Source: Eubacteriales bacterium (GTDB lineage: Bacteria > Bacillota > Clostridia > Oscillospirales > CAG-382). From it: DNA of 64,000 nt. Location: NCBI GenBank assembly GCA_045644305.1, contig JAZRGS010000031.1, forward strand, positions 3,722 to 67,721, read 5' to 3'. The first letter of the stretch is position 1. Each line of letters begins with the position of its first letter. Under the pieces are notes generated by a model that saw only the letters and a program-made list of their open reading frames with translations, did no database searches and was not told the DNA's origin. The position numbers and the translations under genes were made by a program. Positions 1,810-49,308 of the stretch are shown here, piece by piece.

Positions 1810-2619
1810 TTACTCCAACTCGCCGAGAAGCGCGCCTTCATAGAATTCGAGCGTGCCGTTATCGCAAAGACGAGCGAGGTTGGGGTCGATAGGAAGCTTT
1901 GCAACCTTTTCGATGCCGTGCTCTGCCGCGACAGCGTCGACGTTGCCCTCGCCGTAGATAAAGTGCTTCTTGTTGCAGTCGGGGCACTGGAAGTAGGAAT
2001 AGTTTTCAACGAGACCGAGAATGGGAATGTTCATAAGCTCAGCCATACGTACCGCCTTGCCGACGATCATCGAAACAAGGTCCTGAGGGCTGGTTACGAT
2101 AATCATGCCGTCGACGGGGAGCGACTGGAACACGGTAAGCGGTACGTCGCCGGTTCCCGGAGGCATATCGATATACATAACGTCGTTTTCGCCCCAGTTA
2201 ACGTCGGTCCAGAACTGCTTTACACAGCCTGCGATGACGGGACCGCGCCATGCGACGGGGTCGGATTCGTTGGGGAGCAAGAGGTTGAGCGACATAACCT
2301 TAATGCCGGTCTTGCTTTCGGGGGGGATCATAGCCTCGCCGTCGCTTACAACGCCGCCGTTGACGCCGAATATCTTGGGAATCGAAGGGCCGGTGATGTC
2401 TGCGTCGAGGATCGCGACCTTCTTGCCGCTTCTCTGCGCGTTTATCGCAAGCAACGAGGTGCAAAGCGATTTGCCAACGCCGCCCTTGCCGCTTACAACT
2501 GCGATTACTTTGCCGATCTTGCTTCCGTCACGGAGCTTCTCGATCATGCTTTCCTTGGTTTTTTCTCTACTCGAGCAGTTTGCGCTACAAGTAGAGCAAT
2601 CATGCGTACATTCACTCAT
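1810..2619 (-). CDS. Mrp/NBP35 (ApbC-like) P-loop ATPase, Fe-S cluster carrier
   Basis: Deviant Walker A VSGKGGVGKS, a Cys-rich N-terminus, and a CPDC motif near the C-terminus. Confidence 0.85.
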   Translation of the reverse strand: MSECTHDCSTCSANCSSREKTKESMIEKLRDGSKIGKVIAVVSGKGGVGKSLCTSLLAINAQRSGKKVAILDADITGPSIPKIFGVNGGVVSDGEAMIPPESKTGIKVMSLNLLLPNESDPVAWRGPVIAGCVKQFWTDVNWGENDVMYIDMPPGTGDVPLTVFQSLPVDGMIIVTSPQDLVSMIVGKAVRMAELMNIPILGLVENYSYFQCPDCNKKHFIYGEGNVDAVAAEHGIEKVAKLPIDPNLARLCDNGTLEFYEGALLGELE

Positions 2620-2870
2620 CTTTTTTCACAGTCGCGATAGACCATGCAACAAATTTGTTGACGTCTCTCCGCGAATCCTTTCAATAATTTGTAACCCTCG
2701 ACGGGGTTCTATTATTTGTTACAATTCACTTTATAAGTTCTTTTTCTTCGCCGCGAAGAGTAGAACCATCGTCCACGCGGGGAGAATGCTTTATTTATAG
2801 CCGCCTCTACCGCGGGAACTACTTGGCGGATTATCCGCCCGCGGGAACTACTTGGTGCGTTACGCACCCT
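2620..2870 (-). repeat. Intergenic mosaic repeat, copy A (long variant)
   Basis: Shares ordered modules with 3684-4062, 5281-5805 and 6975-7160. Contains the 27-nt invariant core attatttgttacaattcactttataag and hairpins at 2825-2839 and 2854-2868. Confidence 0.9.
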
Positions 2871-3683
2871 TTACAGGGTTTTCAAGTAGGTTATGCTTAA
2901 TTTTGCACATTCCATGCGAGATTTATTCATCGAGGGATAGTCCTGCTCAACGATAAACCATTCAACGCCGCATTTTTCAGCCTTTTCGATAATCGGCGCG
3001 AAGTTTTGCACGCCGTATCCGACGGGGCGGAACTCAAATTCCTGCTTTACGGTTTCTTTCGGTTTGCTCTCGATGCCGATAAGCTCGTACATATTGTCGC
3101 TCTTTTGACCGACGTAGTCCTTCAAGTGGAGAAGCGGGCAACGGTTTGCGTACTTGTCGAGGTAGTGAATCGGGTCCTGACCCGCAACCGATACCCAGCA
3201 GGTGTCCATTTGCATCTTCAAAAGCTCGGCAGGGGTGGTGTCGTAAAGGTTGTCGAAGCCTGTTTCGCCGCTTTCAAGCAGAACGAAATCGAATTCGTGG
3301 TTGTGGTAGCTCAGCGACATTCCTGCGTCGTGCACAGCTTCGCCGATCTTGACAATCGCGTCGCGTGTCGCCAAGTAGTTTGCGCCGCCGGGACGGTCGT
3401 CTTCGCCGAGCCAAGGAATAACGATGTGCTTGCAACCGACGGTTTTGTATGTGTTGATAACGCCTGCGGTGTCACGGAGCAGGTCGGGAAGCGAAACGTG
3501 TGCCGAAATCGGTGTAAGACCGATTTTTTCGACAAGCGCCTTCATCTCCTCGGGCGTTTTTCCGTAAAGTCCTGCGAACTCGACGCCCTCGTAGCCGTAT
3601 TCCTTAAGCGCCGTTAAGGTCGCTTCAATATCTCTTTCGGCATCGTCTCTTACCGAATATAACTGTATAGCAATAGGTTTCAT
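2871..3683 (-). CDS. Sugar phosphate isomerase/epimerase (xylose-isomerase-like TIM barrel)
   Basis: 270-aa ORF. The pattern IQLYSVRD...GYEGVEF...HNHEFDF is typical of the AP-endonuclease-2/TIM-barrel family. Confidence 0.75.
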   Translation of the reverse strand: MKPIAIQLYSVRDDAERDIEATLTALKEYGYEGVEFAGLYGKTPEEMKALVEKIGLTPISAHVSLPDLLRDTAGVINTYKTVGCKHIVIPWLGEDDRPGGANYLATRDAIVKIGEAVHDAGMSLSYHNHEFDFVLLESGETGFDNLYDTTPAELLKMQMDTCWVSVAGQDPIHYLDKYANRCPLLHLKDYVGQKSDNMYELIGIESKPKETVKQEFEFRPVGYGVQNFAPIIEKAEKCGVEWFIVEQDYPSMNKSRMECAKLSITYLKTL

Positions 3684-4062
3684 TTCTTTTCAATTTCGCG
3701 GGCGCGTGACGCGCCGAGCAGTTTCGCGATGAGCCTTTCAACAAGCTCATAATGCTCTCTCCGCGATACCCTTCAATATTTTGTTGCCCTCGACTCCACG
3801 CGGAGTGAGGTTTTTCTGCTTTGTTAGGGTTTACCGCGGGCTTTACTTGGTGCATTATGCACCCGCGATACCCTTCTATATTTTGTAAGCCTCAATTGGA
3901 TTCTATTATTTGTTACAATTCACTTTATAAGTTCTAACCCCTCGTTACGAAGAGTAGAACCGTCGTCCACGCGGGTGGAAGGCTTTATTTATAGCCGCCT
4001 CTACCGCGGAACTGAAAAGGCGGGTTACCCGCCCGCGGGAACTACTTGGTGCATTATGCACC
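3684..4062 (-). repeat. Intergenic mosaic repeat, copy B (short unit plus long unit)
   Basis: About 83 nt (3688-3770) match 6978-7059 with one mismatch. Hairpins lie at 3701-3715, 3849-3863, 4019-4033 and 4048-4062. Confidence 0.9.
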
Positions 4063-5280
4063 CCATTTGCCGTCGACGAAGATGGGGGTAGCGACGCCGT
4101 CCTTGTAGCCGGTGATGCAGAGGTCGTCGGAGCCGATCATAAAGTCAACGTGGATCATCGAGTCGTTAACGCCGAGCGCGTGAAGCTCGTCAAGGGTCAT
4201 GTTTTCGAATCCCTTAACACAGCCGGTGTAGCCCGAGCCGAGAGCAACGTGGCAGGACGCGTTTTCGTCGAAGAGGGTGTTGTAGTAAAGCAATCCGCTT
4301 GCCGCGATGGGGGAGTCCTTGGGGACGAGCGCAAGCTCGCCGAGCATTCTGCTTCCCTCGTCGGTGGTGATAATCTTACCGAGCGCTTCCTCGCCCTTTT
4401 CGGCGTGCCAAGCAACAGCCTTGCCGTCCTCGAAGTCGATATAGAAGTTTTCGATAAGTGTGCCGCGTGCCGAAAGCGGCATCGCAGAAACGAGTCTGCC
4501 GCTGCATTTGCCCTTCATCGGGGTGGTGAAGATCTCCTCGGTCGGCATATTCGGGTTGTAGAATACACCCTGAAGCGTGTATTCGCCGCCGCCGCACCAA
4601 ACGCTTTCCTTCATAAGCTCGCACTTGAAGTCGGTGCCGTTTTTGGAGGTATAGTGGAGATAATCGAACTGCATTTTGTTGAGCCATTCGCTCTTTTCGC
4701 GGAACGCCTGATTCTTTCTGTCCCAAGCCGCGATAGCGTCGTTGGTTTCGTCGCATTCGACGGTCGCAAGGATTGCCTCCCAAAGCTTTTCAACGGCAAC
4801 GCTTGTGCGTTCGTTGGGGAACACCTTCTTCGCCCACGCCTTGCCGGGGATAGCGCAAACCAGCCACTGGTGCTTGTTGTCCATCGCGTCGCGGTAGGGC
4901 TTGATAAGCTTCGAAGCGGCGATGCTTGCCTTCGCGAGCTTTTCCTGATTAACAGAAGCGAGCCCGTCGGGGTCCTCGCAGATAAGACGGATGCGAGCGG
5001 GGAGAATTTCGGAATCGTGCTTAACGCGCTCGACCTGCCAAGCGGGAACGTCGCAAAGCGAACGGGTGGTGCGGTGTCTGTAAGCAAGCTTGGTGAGCTG
5101 GGTCATCGACCAGTCAACGCGAACGTTGCCCGCGCCTGCACGGTATGCCTCTTCGGCAAGGATTGCGACGAAATCCGCCGCCTCGACGTCAGCGCCGATG
5201 TTCAACTGCTGACCCTTCTGGATGTTTACGCCCTGCTTGATAAGAAGCTTCGCGTATTTTCTCATTACACTTTTCTTCAT
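4054..5280 (-). CDS. M29-family aminopeptidase (AmpS/PepS-like)
   Basis: The N-terminus MKKSVMRKYAKLLIKQGVNIQKGQ and overall length fit aminopeptidase II/T. I prefer the ATG at 5280 over the ORF-track start at 5304, which lies inside the repeat. Confidence 0.8.
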   Translation of the reverse strand: MKKSVMRKYAKLLIKQGVNIQKGQQLNIGADVEAADFVAILAEEAYRAGAGNVRVDWSMTQLTKLAYRHRTTRSLCDVPAWQVERVKHDSEILPARIRLICEDPDGLASVNQEKLAKASIAASKLIKPYRDAMDNKHQWLVCAIPGKAWAKKVFPNERTSVAVEKLWEAILATVECDETNDAIAAWDRKNQAFREKSEWLNKMQFDYLHYTSKNGTDFKCELMKESVWCGGGEYTLQGVFYNPNMPTEEIFTTPMKGKCSGRLVSAMPLSARGTLIENFYIDFEDGKAVAWHAEKGEEALGKIITTDEGSRMLGELALVPKDSPIAASGLLYYNTLFDENASCHVALGSGYTGCVKGFENMTLDELHALGVNDSMIHVDFMIGSDDLCITGYKDGVATPIFVDGKWGA

Positions 5281-5805
5281 TTTTTTAGTTTCGCGATGAG
5301 CCATACAACAAGATTGTTAACTCTTCATCGCGATTCCTTTCTGGTATTTGTTAACCTCGACTCCACGCGGACTGAGGTTTTTCTGCTTTGTTAAGGTTTA
5401 CCGCGGGCTTTACTTGGTGCATTATGCACCCGCGATACCTTTGGCGCGTGACGCGCCGCACAGTTTCGCGATGTGTCGGTCAACAAGCTCATAATGCTCT
5501 CTCCGCGATTCCTTTCTGGTGCTTGTAACCCTCAATTGGGTTCCATTATTTGTTACAATTCACTTTATAAGCTCTAACCCTTCGCCACGAAGAGTAGAAC
5601 CATTATCCACGCGGGTGGAAGGCTGTTTTAAATTTCAAACTTTACCGCGGGAACTGAAAAGGTGTGTTACACACCACGCGGGTATAGCGTTACATTATTT
5701 TGCCGCCTTTATCGCGGGAATTGCTTGGGGCGTCACGCCCCCCCGCGGGAGCTGAAATAAATGCGAGACCTCTGTTGAAAGAAGTCTCGCAAGGCAGCTC
5801 GATAA
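5281..5805 (-). repeat. Intergenic mosaic repeat, copy C (module set present twice)
   Basis: Same modules as copies A, B and D. Hairpins lie at 5416-5430, 5443-5457, 5661-5675 and 5727-5741, and the invariant core at about 5545-5571. Confidence 0.9.
5750..5792 (-). terminator. Intrinsic terminator after yajC
   Basis: On the minus strand, stem gcgagac/gtctcgc (5763-5769 with 5784-5790) is followed by atttatttc. Confidence 0.6.
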
Positions 5806-6183
5806 TTACTTTTTCATTTTCACGTTGCTGTCGACTTTGGAATCCTTGACTTCCTTAACCGCGGGCTCGTTAGCCTTTTCGAGAACCGAGTGGACCGCCC
5901 ACTTCTGGATCTGGATCTTGGTTCTGTTGCCGCTGGTTTCAACGAGAAGCATGTCCTCGGTGATCTTAACGACCATAGCCACGATGCCGCCGGTGGTGCA
6001 GATAACGTCGCCAAGCTCGATCGAATTGCGCATATCCGCGGTTTCCTTTTCCTGCTTCTTCTGAGGACGGTAGATGAAGAAATAGAAGACCAAAACGAGC
6101 GGAACGAGAGTGATGAGAAGCGAAATCGCGCCGCCGCCTGCGGGTGCGGTTTCTTCAAGCATCAAAAGATTTGTAAGATTCAT
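5806..6183 (-). CDS. yajC: Preprotein translocase subunit YajC
   Basis: Single N-terminal TM segment, then YRPQKKQEKE...GDVICTTGGIVAMV, the YajC signature. Confidence 0.85.
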   Translation of the reverse strand: MNLTNLLMLEETAPAGGGAISLLITLVPLVLVFYFFIYRPQKKQEKETADMRNSIELGDVICTTGGIVAMVVKITEDMLLVETSGNRTKIQIQKWAVHSVLEKANEPAVKEVKDSKVDSNVKMKK

Positions 6184-6974
6184 TTTAAGTTACCTTCGCT
6201 GTATTTTATTCTTTTTACGTTTGTGCAATAAAGCGTGCTTTCGTCGATTTCGAAGACCGCGCCGGTAAGCGCGATATTCTTCTTTTCGGGGATGCCCTTC
6301 ATGCGGACGTTCTTTGTAAAGCACGATATCGCGGTGTTGTAGGATACACCGATGATCGAATCTGTGCTTCCGCACATCCCGATGTCGCTGATATAACCGC
6401 TTCCGCGGTCGGTGAGCCGTTCGTCGGCTGTCTGCACGTGGGTGTGCGTGCCGAACACCGCTTGAATCCGTCCGTCGAAGATATGCATGAACGCCTGCTT
6501 TTCGCTGGTTGCCTCGCCGTGGAAATCGCAGATAGCAATGTCGTAATTGCCCTTTTGGCGCTCAAGCAGACGCTCGACCGCGTGGAACGGCGAATCGACC
6601 GGGTCCATAAAGACCTGACCGCAAACCGAAATAACCATCGCGCGAAGCCCGTTTTTTATCGGAACGATGCAATAGCCCTCGCCCGGCGAATCGGGCGGGA
6701 AGTTGAGCGGACGAAGCACCGTCGGCTCGTCCTCGAGCAGGTCGAAAATCGCGTATCTGCGGAAGGAATGGTTGCCGCCCGTGAGGACGTCGGCGCCGCT
6801 TTCAAACAAAATGTCGGCGTCGTATTTCTCCAAACCGCTTCCTTCGTGAGCGTTTTCGGCATTTACGATAACCAAGTCGGCGTTTTCCGCGTTCTTGATC
6901 CTTCGCAAGTTTTTCCGCACAAATTCCAAGCCGGGGGTTCCGAAAACATCTCCCACCGCAAGAATTCTAACCAT
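6180..6974 (-). CDS. ymdB: YmdB-family metallophosphoesterase (2',3'-cyclic-nucleotide phosphodiesterase)
   Basis: MVRILAVGDVFG...GNH...GTHTHVQTADE, and it lies directly downstream of rny as in Bacillus. Confidence 0.85.
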   Translation of the reverse strand: MVRILAVGDVFGTPGLEFVRKNLRRIKNAENADLVIVNAENAHEGSGLEKYDADILFESGADVLTGGNHSFRRYAIFDLLEDEPTVLRPLNFPPDSPGEGYCIVPIKNGLRAMVISVCGQVFMDPVDSPFHAVERLLERQKGNYDIAICDFHGEATSEKQAFMHIFDGRIQAVFGTHTHVQTADERLTDRGSGYISDIGMCGSTDSIIGVSYNTAISCFTKNVRMKGIPEKKNIALTGAVFEIDESTLYCTNVKRIKYSEGNLK

Positions 6975-7160
6975 TTTTTCAATTTCGCGGGCGCGTGACG
7001 CGCCGAACAGTTTCGCGATGAGCCTTTCAACAAGCTCATAATGCTCTCTCCGCGATACCTTTCTGGTATTTGTTAACCTCGACTCACGCGGAGTGAGGTT
7101 TTTCTGCTTTGTTAAGGTTTACCGCGGGAACTACTTGGCGGATTATCCGCCCCGCGATAC
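6975..7160 (-). repeat. Intergenic mosaic repeat, copy D (short variant, no AT-rich core)
   Basis: Near-identical to the first half of copy B. Hairpins lie at 6990-7004 and 7137-7151. Confidence 0.9.
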
Positions 7161-7272
7161 CCTTTCTTTTTTCAAAGTCACGATAAACGAAACAATATGC
7201 TTGTTACCGTTTCGCCGTGAAATTTTATTTAAATACAACTTACCCGAAAAGCGTTCAGAGCAGATGCAGATT

Positions 7273-7326
7273 GGACAAACAGAACCCGAAGCTGTAGTAA
7301 TCTACTGCGAGCGGTTCTGTTTGTTC
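7273..7326 (-). other. Long stem-loop 3' of rny, without a canonical U-tract
   Basis: acaaacagaacc (7275-7286) pairs perfectly with ggttctgtttgt (7313-7324), and the inner part pairs partially. No T-run follows on the minus strand. Confidence 0.4.
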
Positions 7327-7361
7327 AAAACAAAGTATTCTGCGCTGCTATGGACGGTTTT

Positions 7362-8897
7362 CTATTTCGCGTAATCGACCTGACGCATCTCACGAATAAC
7401 GTTTATCTTGATCTGACCGGGATATTCAAGCTCCTCTTCGATCTTGCGAGCGATATCCCTTGCGATAAACACCATTTCGTCGTCGTTCACCTCGTCGGGC
7501 TTGACCATAATGCGAACCTCGCGGCCTGCCTGAATAGCAAAAGACTTTTCAACGCCGGTGAAGGAGGTTGCGATTTCCTCAAGCTTCTGGAGACGCTTGA
7601 TATAGGTTTCGAGATTTTCACGTCTTGCACCGGGGCGTGCAGCAGAAAAAGCGTCTGCCGCCTGAACGATCATAGCGACAAGCGTGTTGGGCTCAACGTC
7701 GCCGTGGTGTGCCTCGATAGCGTGAACGATTTCGCGGCTTTCCTTGTACTTGCGCGCAAGATCGACACCGATCTGTACGTGCGAGCCGTCGATTTCGTGA
7801 GTCATTGCCTTACCGATGTCGTGAAGCAGACCCGCGCGCTTTGCCTGAGCAACGTCAACGCCGAGCTCGGAAGCGATCATGCCTGCGATGTGCGAAACCT
7901 CGATAGAGTGCTTAAGCACGTTCTGACCGTAGCTTGTACGGTATTTAAGACGACCGAGCAGCTTAACAAGCTCGGGATTGATGCCGTGAACACCGGTTTC
8001 GTAGGTAGCCTGCTCGCCTTCCTTCTTGATGACGGCTTCGACTTCCTTGCGGGACTTTTCGACGGTTTCTTCGATTCTCGAGGGGTGGATACGTCCGTCG
8101 GAGATGAGCTTTTCGAGCGTCATTCTCACAACCTCTCTGCGAACAGGGTCGAAGGTCGAAATAGCAATAGCTTCGGGGGTGTCGTCGATGATAAGGTCGA
8201 CGCCGGTGAGGGTTTCGATCGCGCGGATGTTTCTGCCCTCGCGGCCGATGATTCTGCCCTTCATTTCGTCGTTGGGAAGGTCGACGACCGATACGGTAGC
8301 TTCGGCAACACTGTCTGCCGCACAGCGCTGGATAGCGAGTGCGATTATGTTCTTGGCTTCTTCCTCTGCCTTGTCCTTGCATTCCTGCTCGACCTCAAGC
8401 AGCTTCATAGCCATTTCGTGTCTTGCTTCGCTTTCGACACGCTCCATAAGTACGGCGCGTGCGTCCTCCGCGGTCATGCCGGAGATCTTCTGAAGAAGCT
8501 CCTCCTGCTGTGCGACGATTTCTTCAGCCTTAAGCTTCAATGCGTCGTTTTCGCGGATCTTGTTGTTCAAAACCTCTTCCTTCTTTTCGAGGTTTTCATA
8601 CTTTTTGTCGAGATTTTCTTCCTTCTGCATCGCACGTCTTTCCATGCGCTGAAGGTCGTTTCTTCTCTCCTTCAATTCGCGCTCGGTTTCGTTCTTGATC
8701 TTGAGCGCTTCTTCCTTAGCTTCTACAAGCTTTTCCTTTTTTGCCGTTTCAGCGGCCTTTGCAGCATCTTCAAGGATTCTCTTCGCTTCTGCTTCCGCGC
8801 TGCCGATCTTCTTTTCGGCAATCGCCTTGCGGATGAGCATACCAACGATGAGACCTACGACGATACCACCGATGGCGGCGAGTACGTAGTACAACAA
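7362..8897 (-). CDS. rny: Ribonuclease Y
   Basis: N-terminal TM segment, coiled coil, KH domain ([12 protein letters not shown]) and HD domain (HDIGK...HH). Start reassigned to the TTG at 8897, 9 nt after AGGAGG (8907-8912), giving 511 aa. Confidence 0.9.
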
Positions 8898-9247
8898 AAT
8901 TTTGTGCCTCCTAAAATTTATTTTATCCCGAGGCGTCTCCCTTGCCCGACTGATAAGTTTTATATTTCGTTTTGAAAATATATCGTTATTTCGCCGTGCG
9001 GAGCTGATTTTTCGGCTTTGCGCGCGTTTCGCTCCGACTGACAAGGCATAGGCATCGGTATTCAAAGTAATTATACATATTTTTTCTTGTCTTGTAAACC
9101 CCCTACATATAAATATATGAAAATTTTTAACAATTATTTCGCGAAAAAAGAGCCTCTTTCGACAAAAGCGGCTTTGCGAGAGTTAAAATCGTTGACTATT
9201 TGCTTTAAAAGGGGTATAATGTAAAAAATATCGTAAAATGGTGAAGT

Positions 9248-25946: not shown

Positions 25947-27599
25947 TCAGTCGTCGACCTTTTCACCGATTCTCGCTTCCTTGATGCCGTTGCGGCGGCA
26001 GTATTCCTGAGCAAGAGAGCCTTCGTTACAGTAAACCACGACCTTGTCCTCGCATCCGTCGAACATACCCCAGCCCATGTCCTTGACCGAGTCGGGAATG
26101 ATAACGGTGTCAAGGCTGGTACAGCCTCTGAACGCGCAGTCGTCGATCTTGGTTACGCTATCGGGAATTTCGATTTCGTCGAGAAGCGTACAGTTGCAGA
26201 ACGCACCTTCACCGATTTCGTTAACGCTGTCGGGCATGGTGATTCTGTTAAGCTTCTTACTGTCGCAGAATGCCCAGTCGCTGATAACGGTTACGCTGTC
26301 GGGAATGTCATACTGAACCTCACGGCTGTTCGCGGGGTATGCAATAAGCGTCGATTTGTTCTTGTTGAAAAGAACGTAGTCGTTACCGTCGCGCTTGTTG
26401 GGTTCGGACTTGTAGTGCATATTCTTGGGCTCAACACGAATCGACTTCATGTTTTCACAGCCTCTGAAGGGAGCGTCGGAGATAGAGATAACCGATGCGG
26501 GAATGGTTACGTTGGTAAGCGATTTGCAGTTCTTGAACGCGCTCTTACCGATCTTGCGCAAGCCTGCGGGAAGCTCGATGGAAGCAAGGCTGATGCAGCC
26601 GTTGAACACAAGGTCGTCGATCTTGGTTACGTTCGAGGGAATTACAACCTTTTCAAGACCTACACAGTCGGAGAATGCGTTTTCACCGATAATCGTAAGT
26701 CTTTCGGGGAGCTTGATCGATTTCAAGCTCTTACAGGAGTTAAATACACCGCCGTAGAGCTCGGTAAGTCCGTCGGGAAGGGTTACGTCCTCAAGCGTTG
26801 CGCAGTTTTCAAACGCGCGCTCGCCGATCTTGATAAAATCGTTTTCAACAACAAGCTTGGTCATCGCAACACAGTCGCGATATGCGCTTTCGCCGACTCT
26901 GCCGGTCTTTGCGGGGATGCGCATTTCCTTAAGCTTGTTACAGCCTCTGAATGCCTCCTCCTCGATTTCCTCCAAGGATTCGGGAAGAGTGATGTTCTTC
27001 AATTGGGTTCTCGACTTAAATGCACCCGCACAAATTACGCGCACGCCCTCGTCAACGTCGATAGTTTCGCCGTTGTCCTCACACTTTGTAAGTCTGCCCT
27101 CGTCAAGCGTGAGTCTGTCCATCGCTTCGGCAGGAAGATCGCGCACCATCGACTTGATAAGCTTATCCATGTCGTCGGCGTTGCTGTGGTGGGTGTTGTT
27201 AAGGAGAATTTCAAACGCAGGAGGAACAGCGGTTTCGGAATCGAGGAAGATCGGATAAAGACGCTTGCCGTTTTCGCGTGCGCAGATGATTTCCATACCG
27301 CAGAAAGGCGAATTCATCGATGCATCGGATACGAAAAGCACGACAGCCGAGCAGTTTTCGATTCTCTTGCGAAGCTCATCTCTGAAGTCGTTGCCGTTTT
27401 CGCAGGATTCATCATACCAGATGCGGTACTTTCTGTCGTGCAACGCATCAAGAATGGGATAAACCTGCGCTGTATCTCTGTGAGAATAGGAAATAAACAA
27501 ATAGGGTTCGGTGCCGTTGTATGCCTCGAACTTGGTGAATACCAAAGGAAATTCATCATTTACGGTTTTGGTGGTCTTCTTAACGGTTTGATTTGCCAT
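25947..27599 (-). CDS. Cytoplasmic TIR-domain protein fused to about 12 BspA-type leucine-rich repeats
   Basis: AGGAGG lies 8 nt before the ATG at 27599. TIR motifs: YLFISYSHRD...RIWYDE...VVLFVS..S..SPFCGMEI. These are followed by repeated IP.SV..I...AF..C..L units. No signal peptide. Confidence 0.8.
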   Translation of the reverse strand: MANQTVKKTTKTVNDEFPLVFTKFEAYNGTEPYLFISYSHRDTAQVYPILDALHDRKYRIWYDESCENGNDFRDELRKRIENCSAVVLFVSDASMNSPFCGMEIICARENGKRLYPIFLDSETAVPPAFEILLNNTHHSNADDMDKLIKSMVRDLPAEAMDRLTLDEGRLTKCEDNGETIDVDEGVRVICAGAFKSRTQLKNITLPESLEEIEEEAFRGCNKLKEMRIPAKTGRVGESAYRDCVAMTKLVVENDFIKIGERAFENCATLEDVTLPDGLTELYGGVFNSCKSLKSIKLPERLTIIGENAFSDCVGLEKVVIPSNVTKIDDLVFNGCISLASIELPAGLRKIGKSAFKNCKSLTNVTIPASVISISDAPFRGCENMKSIRVEPKNMHYKSEPNKRDGNDYVLFNKNKSTLIAYPANSREVQYDIPDSVTVISDWAFCDSKKLNRITMPDSVNEIGEGAFCNCTLLDEIEIPDSVTKIDDCAFRGCTSLDTVIIPDSVKDMGWGMFDGCEDKVVVYCNEGSLAQEYCRRNGIKEARIGEKVDD

Positions 27600-27886
27600 T
27601 GCGGTAACCTCCTGAAAATTTATAAGAATGCGCCTTACGCCTTTTATTAATGATACATTATAACACTTTGCCCCTCGGTTGTCAATCAATTATAACCCTT
27701 TTTTGTCATTTTTTGTACATATTAAATACAATTCCCACGCCTTTTGCACCCTTTGTACCCCTTTAACCGCGACACAACCAACGGTAGAGCGTTTTTGCTT
27801 GACTTCAGCCGTCCCAAGTGATAAAATAAAAACAACGAACGACTGCAGGCGTTTGTTGTAAATCAATACGAAAGGAGGGGCAGTAT

Positions 27887-47469: not shown

Positions 47470-49308
47470 TTATTTAAGTTCTTCAAATATGCGATTAATA
47501 CTTGCTGAAATGGTGCGCCAATGAATAGCAAGTATGGAATAATAATTCTTATCTTTCTTCAAATAGTTCGTGGCATTCAACGAAGTATCATATGCCGATG
47601 CCATCAAAAAGCTTGTTATTCCCGCGTCTATTATGACATTAAATAGCTTGTTAAGCACATCATCACATCGATCCTTTTCATTGAAAATCTCAGGTGGAAT
47701 AAAGTATGACACATTATCTATGTTAGCGAAAATATCGTAAAGTCTGGAATCGGATGCGCTATCTGTACGGGCAACGGCAAAAATTGTGTTCAAATCATTG
47801 TTGGAAATATTGCCACAATAGTATCTTGCTGCAAAAGCCACAAAAGCAATACAGATCGTTCTCGCATTGTGAGCAAAAGAGATTCTGTCATTCGCATCAG
47901 GTAAATCAGCATTTTCTCTATCAAATTTCTTTTGGAATGTGTTCTTAAAATAATAATCGATATAAAGCAACTCTTTTGATAGCTTTGCAATTTGCATTTG
48001 ATTTCCATCAAATACCTTGTCATAGTACTGCGGATTATACAGAGCCGACGGCTTAGTTCGACTTGCACATGGCACCTGAAATATTGCTGCCATACACAGC
48101 TTGCCTATCTCAACCAAGGATGAGTTAAGATATGCATCAGCAAACGCTCTGGGCACTGCTTCACCACGCTTGGTTTGATAGAATATTCCTACTTCTCGCA
48201 TTGATTGTGCAAAACGAACCTGTTCAGGAGAATTCGCTTTTAAGTCAACAGGTTTAATAGGTTTCTGTGTATTTGTCGCTTTTGCAATAGAAAGGCTAAA
48301 TGCATTCTTTTCGTCCTCGGTATCCCCCTCGGTTTTAATAATTTTACAGGGCAAAAAGAAATCATTATGTTCATCAATACTTCTGCTCTTGTGAATCATA
48401 TAAGTAGTTTGACCGCCATTGATGATAGAAAAGTCACGAAGTTTGACCTCTCTTCCATCAATCGAGAAATCACCACATACAATGGTTATACCGTTGTTTT
48501 TGTACCAAAAAGATTCTGGATTGTTACGAATAGTCTCATCAATGCCTCTATCAATATCGCGACCTGCAATATGATAGCGAAGATTTCGTGCTAGAAGTTG
48601 AATATTATGTTGTGCATACAAAGCCTTGATTGAAAAGGCAGAAACATTGACTATGGCTGCATTCTCGCCATATATCAGACAGTTGTCAGACTCGTCAATT
48701 TTAATTTTCCCGTGTTCAACAGTTGCGCGACGCGACTCCGATTCTTTGATTTCTTCTACTATATCTTTGCCAAAGAATATAGACACTTCAAATTGACTTG
48801 AATCTTCAAAAAGCTCGCGAAACTTTTTCTCAATACGCGCTTTATTAATACCGGACTGAAGAGCGCTAGTGTAAAATACAAAGTGAATTTTAGACTCTTC
48901 TCCAACTTCAGAAAACAACGAAAGGAATCTTCTTTGAACATTTGAATTAACCTGCTCATAGTGTCCTTGTTGCATATCCTTATAAAATGCAGCCATTTTT
49001 GTCATAGCATTAAATACATCTTCAAAGGAAATAGCTGTGTAATATTTTGACTGAGCAATTACCAAATCGGAACTTTCTGAAGAAGGATCAGTTAGAAGAA
49101 CATCAACGCCACCATCATATTGACCGTCTACAATCATTTCCGCATAATCGTTTTCAGTTACGATCAAAGCTGGATTTTTATAAAGGTGGGATTTGACGCA
49201 CAACGCAGAAAAAACATAATCATCTGCTTTTGAGCGCAAAGAAGGGGTAGCCTCCTTCATTGATTGAATTTTATTTTTTATGAATTCGTATGATACATCA
49301 GCGGGCAT
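47470..49308 (-). CDS. AIPR-family abortive-infection (phage resistance) protein
   Basis: The N-terminal pattern YVFSALCV...DGQYDGGVDVLL...LVIAQSKYY and the ~610-aa length fit AIPR. The gene is strongly AT-rich relative to its flanks. Confidence 0.65.
   Translation of the reverse strand: MPADVSYEFIKNKIQSMKEATPSLRSKADDYVFSALCVKSHLYKNPALIVTENDYAEMIVDGQYDGGVDVLLTDPSSESSDLVIAQSKYYTAISFEDVFNAMTKMAAFYKDMQQGHYEQVNSNVQRRFLSLFSEVGEESKIHFVFYTSALQSGINKARIEKKFRELFEDSSQFEVSIFFGKDIVEEIKESESRRATVEHGKIKIDESDNCLIYGENAAIVNVSAFSIKALYAQHNIQLLARNLRYHIAGRDIDRGIDETIRNNPESFWYKNNGITIVCGDFSIDGREVKLRDFSIINGGQTTYMIHKSRSIDEHNDFFLPCKIIKTEGDTEDEKNAFSLSIAKATNTQKPIKPVDLKANSPEQVRFAQSMREVGIFYQTKRGEAVPRAFADAYLNSSLVEIGKLCMAAIFQVPCASRTKPSALYNPQYYDKVFDGNQMQIAKLSKELLYIDYYFKNTFQKKFDRENADLPDANDRISFAHNARTICIAFVAFAARYYCGNISNNDLNTIFAVARTDSASDSRLYDIFANIDNVSYFIPPEIFNEKDRCDDVLNKLFNVIIDAGITSFLMASAYDTSLNATNYLKKDKNYYSILAIHWRTISASINRIFEELK

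Follow-up and report, generated by a model that had tools for sequence, protein, structure and literature searches.

Introduction

The REP, BIME and REPIN sequences of E. coli, Pseudomonas and Stenotrophomonas, whose partner enzymes are RAYT/TnpA-REP, are short, GC-rich, extragenic stem-loops that fall into several stem subfamilies per genome and are assembled into mosaic clusters with conserved linkers and into inverted doublets. In E. coli, REP elements form barriers at 3' ends and, if near a stop codon, can affect translation. Here we describe elements that share the general features above, namely twelve perfect hairpins of the form GGNGNN-N3-NNCNCC in four consecutive intergenic gaps of contig JAZRGS010000031.1 from a Eubacteriales bacterium, of which a 64-kb stretch was analyzed (the window; all coordinates are window positions unless a relative's locus is named). 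With a probability of roughly 0.6, we take these hairpins to be the stem-loop heads of a lineage-specific, non-coding mosaic repeat family of an uncultured ruminant-gut Clostridia lineage. The hairpin family is previously undescribed and is REP/BIME/MITE-like (MITE, miniature inverted-repeat transposable element), and searches of Rfam, of phage and plasmid collections and of the literature gave no match to it. If it is what it appears to be, it extends REP/BIME-type hairpin repeats to this part of the Clostridia.

The units in the window have the dimensions of REP elements (15-nt hairpins in 29-nt units, outside genes), and they sit at gene 3' ends and sometimes supply the stop codon, as REP termini that overlap stop codons have been described to do (PMC3733652). 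They differ from REPs in having no conserved GT[AG]G at the hairpin 5' foot, their conserved flank being on the inner side of the hairpin, in having a perfect, bulge-free 6-bp stem within a 7-1-7 palindrome, in being mostly direct rather than alternating, and in the lack of a RAYT gene among the scanned open reading frames (ORFs) of the window. The host also sets them apart, since it belongs to a Clostridia lineage, a group for which the surveys consulted report no REPs; according to them, class 2 TnpA (REP-associated) genes are found chiefly in Proteobacteria, Cyanobacteria and Bacteroidetes (PMC3733652, PMC6006769).

Several other repeat families resemble these elements in part. BOX of Streptococcus pneumoniae, RUP, SPRITE and STAR are likewise modular, non-coding intergenic repeats of Gram-positive bacteria. 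BOX-type repeats vary in the number of internal units, are predicted to be strongly structured and can affect nearby genes; they have no sequence relationship to the present elements, are built of other modules and lack a hairpin class with a variable stem and an invariant flank. The mycobacterial MIRU elements also occupy gaps between co-directional genes in one orientation relative to transcription, touch or overlap stop and start codons, and vary in unit copy number between strains, as do the one to three copies of the A module (below) upstream of the M29 aminopeptidase gene in one set of relatives (L059-L064). MIRUs are, however, 46-101-bp tandem units with short ORFs for translational coupling, whereas the elements here are heterogeneous, hairpin-based and partly inverted and have no conserved ORF. 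MITEs and PATEs (Correia, ERIC, and the PATEs derived from IS200/IS605) are matched by a length of ~160 bp, imperfect terminal inverted repeats, presence/absence polymorphism and assembly breaks; in contrast to them, no target-site duplication was recognized here, no parent insertion sequence is known and the extreme termini are perfect palindromes. The end hairpins of IS200/IS605 elements have the same orientation, whereas those here are inverted.

The type I-E CRISPR repeat is 29 nt long (GAGTTCCCCGCGCCAGCGGGGATAAACCG). With that sequence the units share a 29-nt period, a palindromic core and the strings AGTTCCC(C)GCG and GGATAA, but their stem-loop is elsewhere in the unit and no cas genes are present. 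A CRISPR-like array was rejected because there are no spacers: the tandem units at 2811-2868 and 4005-4062 directly abut, and their stems differ from repeat to repeat. We treat the resemblance as superficial.

Results

Twelve hairpins and the units that carry them

A scan of the window for GGNGNN-N3-NNCNCC gave 27 matches (10.1 ± 3.2 in shuffled sequence), of which 12 are perfectly paired. These recover the positions, the seven stem types and the loop counts (TTA eight times, TGA three times, TCA once) that a first-pass annotation, made by a model from the letters alone, had reported. All twelve lie within the consecutive intergenic regions 2620-2870, 3684-4053, 5281-5805 and 6975-7361, some of them overlapping a stop codon only. 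Perfect 6-3-6 hairpins of any sequence number 46 in the window; 14 of them fall within the 1,543 bp of the four gaps, where 0.79 would be expected from the density outside, and T..A loop ends are found in none of the 32 hairpins outside the gaps.

On the gene-sense (window minus) strand the unit consists of the 15-nt palindrome GGNGNN-T-N-A-NNCNCC, an 8-9-nt A/T-rich linker and the sequence (T/G)(T/C)CCCGCGG. The linkers in the window are AAGTAGTT, AAGTAAAG, AAGCAATT and TTTTCAGT, and AAATAAAG and TTTTCAAT are further variants. Units may stand alone, follow one another in tandem every 29 nt (the two arrays above) or be inverted, and nine of the twelve in the window are direct. The first-pass annotation had given most hairpins a conserved flank. 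This holds for the four copies with an exact CGCGGGAACTACTTGG and, with 2-3 mismatches, for three more, but other copies deviate: two carry the variant CGCGG(G)AACTGAAAAGG, and the three GGCGCG-TGA hairpins belong to inverted units, with the flank on the opposite side.

The direct units, all on the minus strand, are as follows. GGCGGA-TTA-TCCGCC is found at 2825-2839 and at 7137-7151 (the left tip of the composite element 6990-7151, below), and the 33 nt at 2808-2840 are identical to those at 7120-7152, at two different module positions (BLAST). GGTGCG-TTA-CGCACC at 2854-2868 lies 2 nt after the isomerase stop codon (2871-2873), and its stem type is also found in L066 (below). Three copies are GGTGCA-TTA-TGCACC: the one at 3849-3863 is the left tip of the element 3701-3863, the one at 4048-4062 has the last two M29 codons (GGT GCA) as its 5' arm and the stop codon TAA (4054-4056) as its loop, and the one at 5416-5430 heads the C module of the third gap. 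GGCGGG-TTA-CCCGCC at 4019-4033, a stem type also present at loci L003 and L021 (below), and GGTGTG-TTA-CACACC at 5661-5675 are each followed on the minus strand by a terminator-like TTTTCAG. GGGGCG-TCA-CGCCCC at 5727-5741 is 78-81% complementary over 27 nt to the inverted (B) units. The latter all read GGCGCG-TGA-CGCGCC, on the plus strand, at 3701-3715, 5443-5457 and 6990-7004; the first and last are the right tips of the two composite elements and match the unit covariance model on the strand opposite to the direct units at 24.9 and 22.6 bits, respectively.

Covariation of the stems

Fifteen copies (the twelve from the window and three from a related metagenome-assembled genome (MAG)) were aligned. 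All 84 distinct stem cells of this alignment are Watson-Crick, and three of the six pairs vary. The comparison with a shuffled null bears out the first-pass expectation of covariation, in that 17 cells are changed on both sides, one-sided changes are absent and 0 of 500 shuffles did as well; slid registers are each far worse than the true stem register. The same annotation had named unpaired stem variants among genome-wide copies as evidence against its claim; within the four gaps there is no one-mismatch GGNGNN-type copy. Thirteen direct units, one of them from a fourth genome, give the same picture. Among the 16 accessible hairpins, which come from four genomes, the T..A loop ends are invariant, so that only the central loop base is free and the hairpin is a 7-1-7 palindrome.

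All the stem changes had been called compensatory, but how many independent events do they represent? The stem types do differ by pair-preserving double changes only; their independence was overstated, because the types are common to several genomes and are exchanged as whole cassettes (below). Since the twelve copies occupy a few paralogous module positions and no fewer than six double substitutions are needed to connect the seven stems, the number of compensatory events indicated is at least six rather than twelve. Three of the stem types recur unchanged in other genomes.

The ~170-nt D module found in three of the gaps (below) contains a second 6-bp triloop hairpin, TCTTCG-N3-CGAAGA, which is perfect at 2745 and mismatched in its orthologues at ~3939 and ~5579. 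Because this neighbour has decayed over the same divergence, the pairing of the GGNGNN hairpins is constrained or actively restored. Read on the gene-sense strand the D-module mismatches are G-U wobbles, and read on the opposite strand they are A-C, which hints weakly that it is the sense strand that counts. Folding of a whole gap gives energies far better than shuffles on both strands (z = -7.0 and -6.3), and since both fold equally well the energy picks neither. The proposal of selection on structure thus has in its favor stems that vary yet stay paired, a fixed flank, fixed loop ends and fixed GG.G/C.CC positions, and a neighbouring hairpin that decays, but the strict Watson-Crick pairing without G-U and the symmetry up to the loop ends suit a DNA-level palindrome or template-switch correction as well as they suit selection on RNA.

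Distribution in relatives and other genomes

The best homologues of the window's M29 aminopeptidase (4054-5280) are 83-87% identical and come from Clostridia MAGs. Eight syntenic loci with the same gene order, from seven lineages (L024-L029, L055-L058; L057 and L058 carry the same M29 protein and are counted as one), contain no element by BLAST or covariance model. The short contigs of an eighth lineage (L059-L064) are likewise without hairpin units, and one of these nine syntenic relatives carries the broader A-module repeats alone. Gaps at comparable junctions are mostly much shorter in the relatives, a few being longer and holding unrelated sequence: the isomerase-Mrp junction is 251 bp in the window and 26 bp in L024, and the YajC-M29 junction is 525 bp in the window and 51-207 bp in relatives. 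As judged from this comparison of sequences, the elements are shown to be gains relative to the syntenic relatives.

Scanning a genome collection with the 17-nt flank as query gave 23 matches, of which only two loci (L003 and L021) of the MAG Clostridia bacterium RGIG6318 (JAFXDO01), from sheep rectum, are real, the rest being single chance matches. Both loci have the same module order as the window, with stems GGTGCA and GGCGGG. A Logan contig from another sample, L066, encodes an orthologue of the L003 dockerin gene with 97% identity and has a hairpin at the identical post-stop position but of a different cassette: L003 carries GGCGGG-TAA-CCCGCC followed by AAATAAAGCCCGCGG, and L066 carries GGTGCG-TAA-CGCACC followed by TTTTCAATTCCCGCG, so that between proteins that are 97% identical GGCGGG plus AAATAAAG has been replaced by GGTGCG plus TTTTCAAT. 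In L067, which encodes an orthologue of 58% identity, the sites are empty, with an ordinary promoter and Shine-Dalgarno sequence and a downstream gap of 13 bp. Copies are present at three unrelated loci in two other genomes. That the stem was made as an inverted copy of local target sequence was considered and is ruled out, as the same stems are found at unrelated sites and in other genomes.

Because stem types and linkers recur across genomes and reassort, they make up a small shared pool, and on these comparisons the "compensatory" pattern reflects in large part a diversity of types that was inherited and then moved by copy-paste or conversion. Contigs from several samples (L059-L064 and L066) end inside repeats, which fits, indirectly, a multi-copy nature; these repeats break metagenome assemblies of this clade.

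A broader and older layer is formed by CGCG-delimited, A-module-like units of 37-42 nt (ATCGCGGGGAG..CAACAAGTCCGTTG..CATCGCGGAAA) that lie directly upstream of the M29 start. They are present in 1-3 tandem copies in L059-L064 (the P0026 lineage), where the contigs end, and in three copies in L024 (2733-2962 of that locus), and their number differs between samples that encode an identical M29 protein, as in a variable number tandem repeat.

Modules and composite elements

In the four gaps the units head larger modules in which CGCG-centred palindromes (CCGCGG, TCGCGA) abound. The modules are common to the four gaps (mutual identity 60-100%), and neither BLAST nor the unit covariance model finds any part of them again in the remaining ~57 kb of the window. 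The gaps contain 21-29 CGCG per kb, with a spacing of ~29-37 nt, vs 5.9 per kb elsewhere. The C module is ~110 nt long, and the A module (ATCGCGG...CATCGCGAAA) stops a few bases short of the start codon that follows. The three D modules are 61-84% identical overall, and all three contain the same 27-nt AT-rich block, ATTATTTGTTACAATTCACTTTATAAG, at 2711-2737, 3905-3931 and 5545-5571. The block contains TGTTACAAT (2717, 3911 and 5551) and, on the plus strand and hence antisense to the genes, reads as an extended -10-like TGtTACAAT; it could be an antisense promoter or a protein site. We also considered whether the D module carries a portable sigma-70 promoter on its sense strand and rejected this, as there is no conserved match and the conserved extended -10-like motif is only antisense.

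The modules are arranged as follows. In the first gap (isomerase stop to Mrp start, 2620-2870) a tandem pair of 29-nt hairpin units is followed by D and A modules and by an A-rich leader that lacks a Shine-Dalgarno sequence. In the second (M29 stop to isomerase start, 3684-4063) the unit that overlaps the M29 stop is followed by a second unit, a D module, a 163-bp double-tipped element and a leader. The third (YajC stop to M29 start, 5281-5805) begins with the native intrinsic terminator of yajC (5762-5791, minus strand; a 12-bp stem and a T-run), which is context outside the repeat, the array starting ~15 nt later with three direct units and continuing through a D module and one inverted B unit to the C and A modules and a leader. 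The repeat part of the fourth, upstream of ymdB (6975-7224), has a degenerate copy of the A module and leader (7165-7221), a 162-bp hairpin-tipped element and a leader. All four arrays read on the minus strand.

Two of these arrangements resemble MITEs or REPINs. The 163-bp element at 3701-3863 (minus strand) consists of hairpin, linker, CCCGCGG, C module, A module and inverted hairpin, and the 162-bp element at 6990-7151 (minus strand) is 87% identical to it with a different left hairpin type. In each, direct alignment shows that the B unit and the direct unit 162-163 bp away form ~45-nt imperfect terminal inverted repeats. A-rich leader-like sequence flanks some insertions on both sides (7165-7185 and 6975-6989 in the fourth gap, and at L003) and may hint at a duplication. 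Upstream of the L003 element, at 6440-6500 of that locus, there is a good TTGACA-17-TAAAAT promoter, an AGGAGA Shine-Dalgarno sequence and an ATG that opens a 41-codon ORF into the element; this Shine-Dalgarno/ATG context resembles the true gene start beyond the element and could be duplicated target sequence.

Fit of the elements to the flanking genes

The flanking genes are ordinary chromosomal genes, all on the minus strand: those for RNase Y (7362-9065), YmdB (6180-6974), YajC (5806-6183), the M29 aminopeptidase, a xylose-isomerase-like TIM-barrel protein (a sugar isomerase, 2871-3683) and an Mrp/NUBPL ATPase (1810-2619). A look-up of the exact YmdB protein gave no record. In each of the eight gaps examined (the four in the window, those upstream and downstream at L003, the downstream one at L066, and L021) the elements are oriented alike with respect to the flanking genes, and they span about from a stop codon to the next start codon. 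Where the M29 stop codon is the hairpin loop, the protein ends ...GKWGA*, vs ...GKWAE*, ...GKWA* and ...GKWADQ* in relatives, and at L003 and L066 the stop codon TAG shares its G with the first G of the hairpin. After yajC the order is a normal terminator and then the repeat array.

The genes that follow elements (1810-2619, 2871-3683, 4054-5280 and 6180-6974) have A-rich leaders of the CGCGA(A/C) type and no Shine-Dalgarno sequence, and three of these leaders read CGCGAAAyTnAAAAAA-ATG. An AGGAG-like Shine-Dalgarno sequence precedes most other genes of the window and the orthologues in relatives. The insertions remove the Shine-Dalgarno sequence of housekeeping genes.

Searches for an enzyme or a known family

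Pfam scans covered 46 of the 50 window ORFs of at least 100 codons. The first-pass annotation had proposed a RAYT/IS200-type enzyme acting on REP-like hairpins. Its REP half survives as the best analogy, the repeats being extragenic and stop-adjacent with some inverted doublets, but there is no Y1 or RAYT gene among these 46 ORFs and the REP tag is missing: instead of GT[AG]G at the hairpin 5' foot, GTAG is present solely in the commonest linker, AAGTAGTT, where on the sense strand it lies 2 nt 3' of the hairpin. At the gathering threshold Rfam yields only three tRNAs in the window, and a permissive scan of 2600-7400 (E up to 5) gave nothing below E = 0.6. A protein search with the translated element gave no candidates, BLAST of the element against plasmid and phage collections gave no match, and a literature search for RAYT/REP in Firmicutes or Clostridia found nothing relevant.

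Discussion

What might such a family do? The 33-nt identical tract and the whole-cassette replacement at L066 indicate that conversion between copies is active, and we suggest that the mosaic repeat family spreads and turns over by copy-and-paste or by recombination between copies, with intrastrand pairing of the hairpin as the property that is preserved. The elements would be co-transcribed with the flanking genes. By analogy with E. coli REP, a GC-rich hairpin at the stop codon may then be a 3'-end barrier or partial terminator in the transcript, and the 3' end of the element would supply the next gene with the leader CGCGAAAyTnAAAAAA-ATG in place of a Shine-Dalgarno sequence. With seven stem types kept paired beside an invariant flank, and cassettes swapped between near-identical strains, the family is a natural experiment.

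A number of observations weigh against this interpretation. The two strands fold equally well and the hairpin sequence is the same on either one; there are 0 G-U pairs among 96 stem pairs and the symmetry extends to the loop ends, which points to DNA-level palindromy rather than RNA. Only three of the 16 hairpins (4019, 5661 and L066) are followed by a T-run, the other 13 having AAGTA- or CGCG-type sequence after them, which means that the majority do not qualify as classical intrinsic terminators. That the elements lie so near to stop and start codons is in part a trivial consequence of ancestral gaps of only 13-70 bp. Within the window the family is restricted to four adjacent gaps (12 copies, and 0 in the other 57 kb), its exact 17-nt flank was found just twice in the related MAG RGIG6318, and searches of the JGI metagenome and IMG/VR viral collections with that flank gave no copy, only chance or unrelated matches. 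No transposase, Y1_Tnp/HUH, IS200 or TnpB gene was found by Pfam among the 46 scanned ORFs, and no clear target-site duplication was recognized at the elements.

The strict Watson-Crick pairing beside a conserved unpaired flank is also what might be seen if the units were single-stranded DNA recognition hairpins for an HUH/Y1 enzyme (RAYT/TnpA-REP or IS200/IS605-type) encoded elsewhere, with the linker and CCCGCGG as guide or cleavage region and the 163-bp elements as REPIN-like mobile doublets. Inverted doublets are present, several stem subfamilies coexist as in REP families, and IS200-type Y1 genes are reported to be common in Clostridia (PMC6006769); the uniform orientation could mirror the replication strand, because the genes here are on the leading strand inferred from GC skew. 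We nevertheless hold such an enzyme to be a possible but doubtful explanation, given that Pfam found no Y1_Tnp or TnpB in the window ORFs, that GT[AG]G is missing from the 5' foot and GTAG varies among the linkers, that the copy number seen is small, and that REP surveys report none for Firmicutes/Clostridia (PMC3733652, PMC6006769).

The perfect palindromy might alternatively be a mutational by-product, in which one arm is rewritten from the other by intrastrand template switching (quasipalindrome correction) or by gene conversion between copies, so that both members of a "compensatory" pair arise in one step, with no selection on structure. The 7-1-7 symmetry that leaves the central base alone free, the lack of one-sided intermediates and G-T pairs, and the active conversion seen in the cassette replacement and the 33-nt identical tract are all in keeping with this. 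Yet the neighbouring 6-bp hairpin in the same modules was not kept perfect, and purifying selection is needed to explain why four genomes show no variation at stem positions 1, 2 and 4, in the loop ends or in the flank. Efficient template switching would, moreover, call for longer stems than these. We regard a purely mutational origin as unlikely. It is very improbable that the 15-bp palindromes are double-stranded operators of a dimeric DNA-binding protein, the arrays of CGCG palindromes at 29-37 bp then forming a centromere- or regulator-like platform. The enrichment of CGCG in the gaps (21-29 vs 5.9 per kb), its regular 29-37-nt spacing and the perfect 7-1-7 palindromes would suit such a platform, but a dimer needs no symmetry at positions that it does not contact, and yet symmetry holds at 48 of 48 variable pairs. 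The surroundings offer no candidate regulator or partition gene (relatives that lack the repeats also have the Mrp/NUBPL ATPase), and the same units are found at unrelated loci in other genomes.

A more novel reading, which we offer as a long shot, is that the elements are portable "stop-to-start" cassettes with a hairpin "type code". A putative hairpin-specific enzyme or RNA-binding protein would recognize GG.G..T.A..C.CC plus CCCGCGG and exchange or insert cassettes at gene junctions, and an inserted element would put its own 3'-end hairpin and a leader without a Shine-Dalgarno sequence in the place of the native terminator and Shine-Dalgarno sequence. If true, the cassettes would represent either a novel mechanism for rewiring operon junctions or, in Firmicutes, a novel class of mobile DNA directed by hairpins.

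Other features of the window and its relatives

A second, unrelated intergenic repeat family is present in the relatives (L028 8451-8763 and 9909-10000, L059 2400-2698, L021 2380-2460), with the motifs GGGGACCCC, "cttgtccaag" and "ggcgcatgtccttgaaaaat". It is sometimes found at the same junctions (RNase Y-YmdB and YajC-M29) as the hairpin elements of the window. Another unrelated repeat, ACCGTCCGCGGGAACTACTTGGTAT, is present in both orientations in four JGI freshwater metagenome contigs (L030, L032, L042 and L051); it contains the 17-mer by chance and no hairpin follows it.

Between the RNase Y stop codon and the repeat array of the fourth gap, at 7253-7355 on the plus strand, there is a candidate rod-like hairpin RNA of ~105-115 nt, which has no Rfam match. 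It is 75% identical to a sequence in RGIG6318 (L021 ~880-1000), where the gene context is different, and the consensus fold has -50 kcal/mol, 41 pairs and 5 compensatory changes on the plus strand and -29 on the minus strand. Elsewhere in the window, two genes on the minus strand that are unrelated to the hairpins are possible defence genes: one at 25947-27689 encodes a protein with a TIR domain and BspA-type leucine-rich repeats, and one at 47470-49308 encodes an AIPR (abortive-infection-related) protein.

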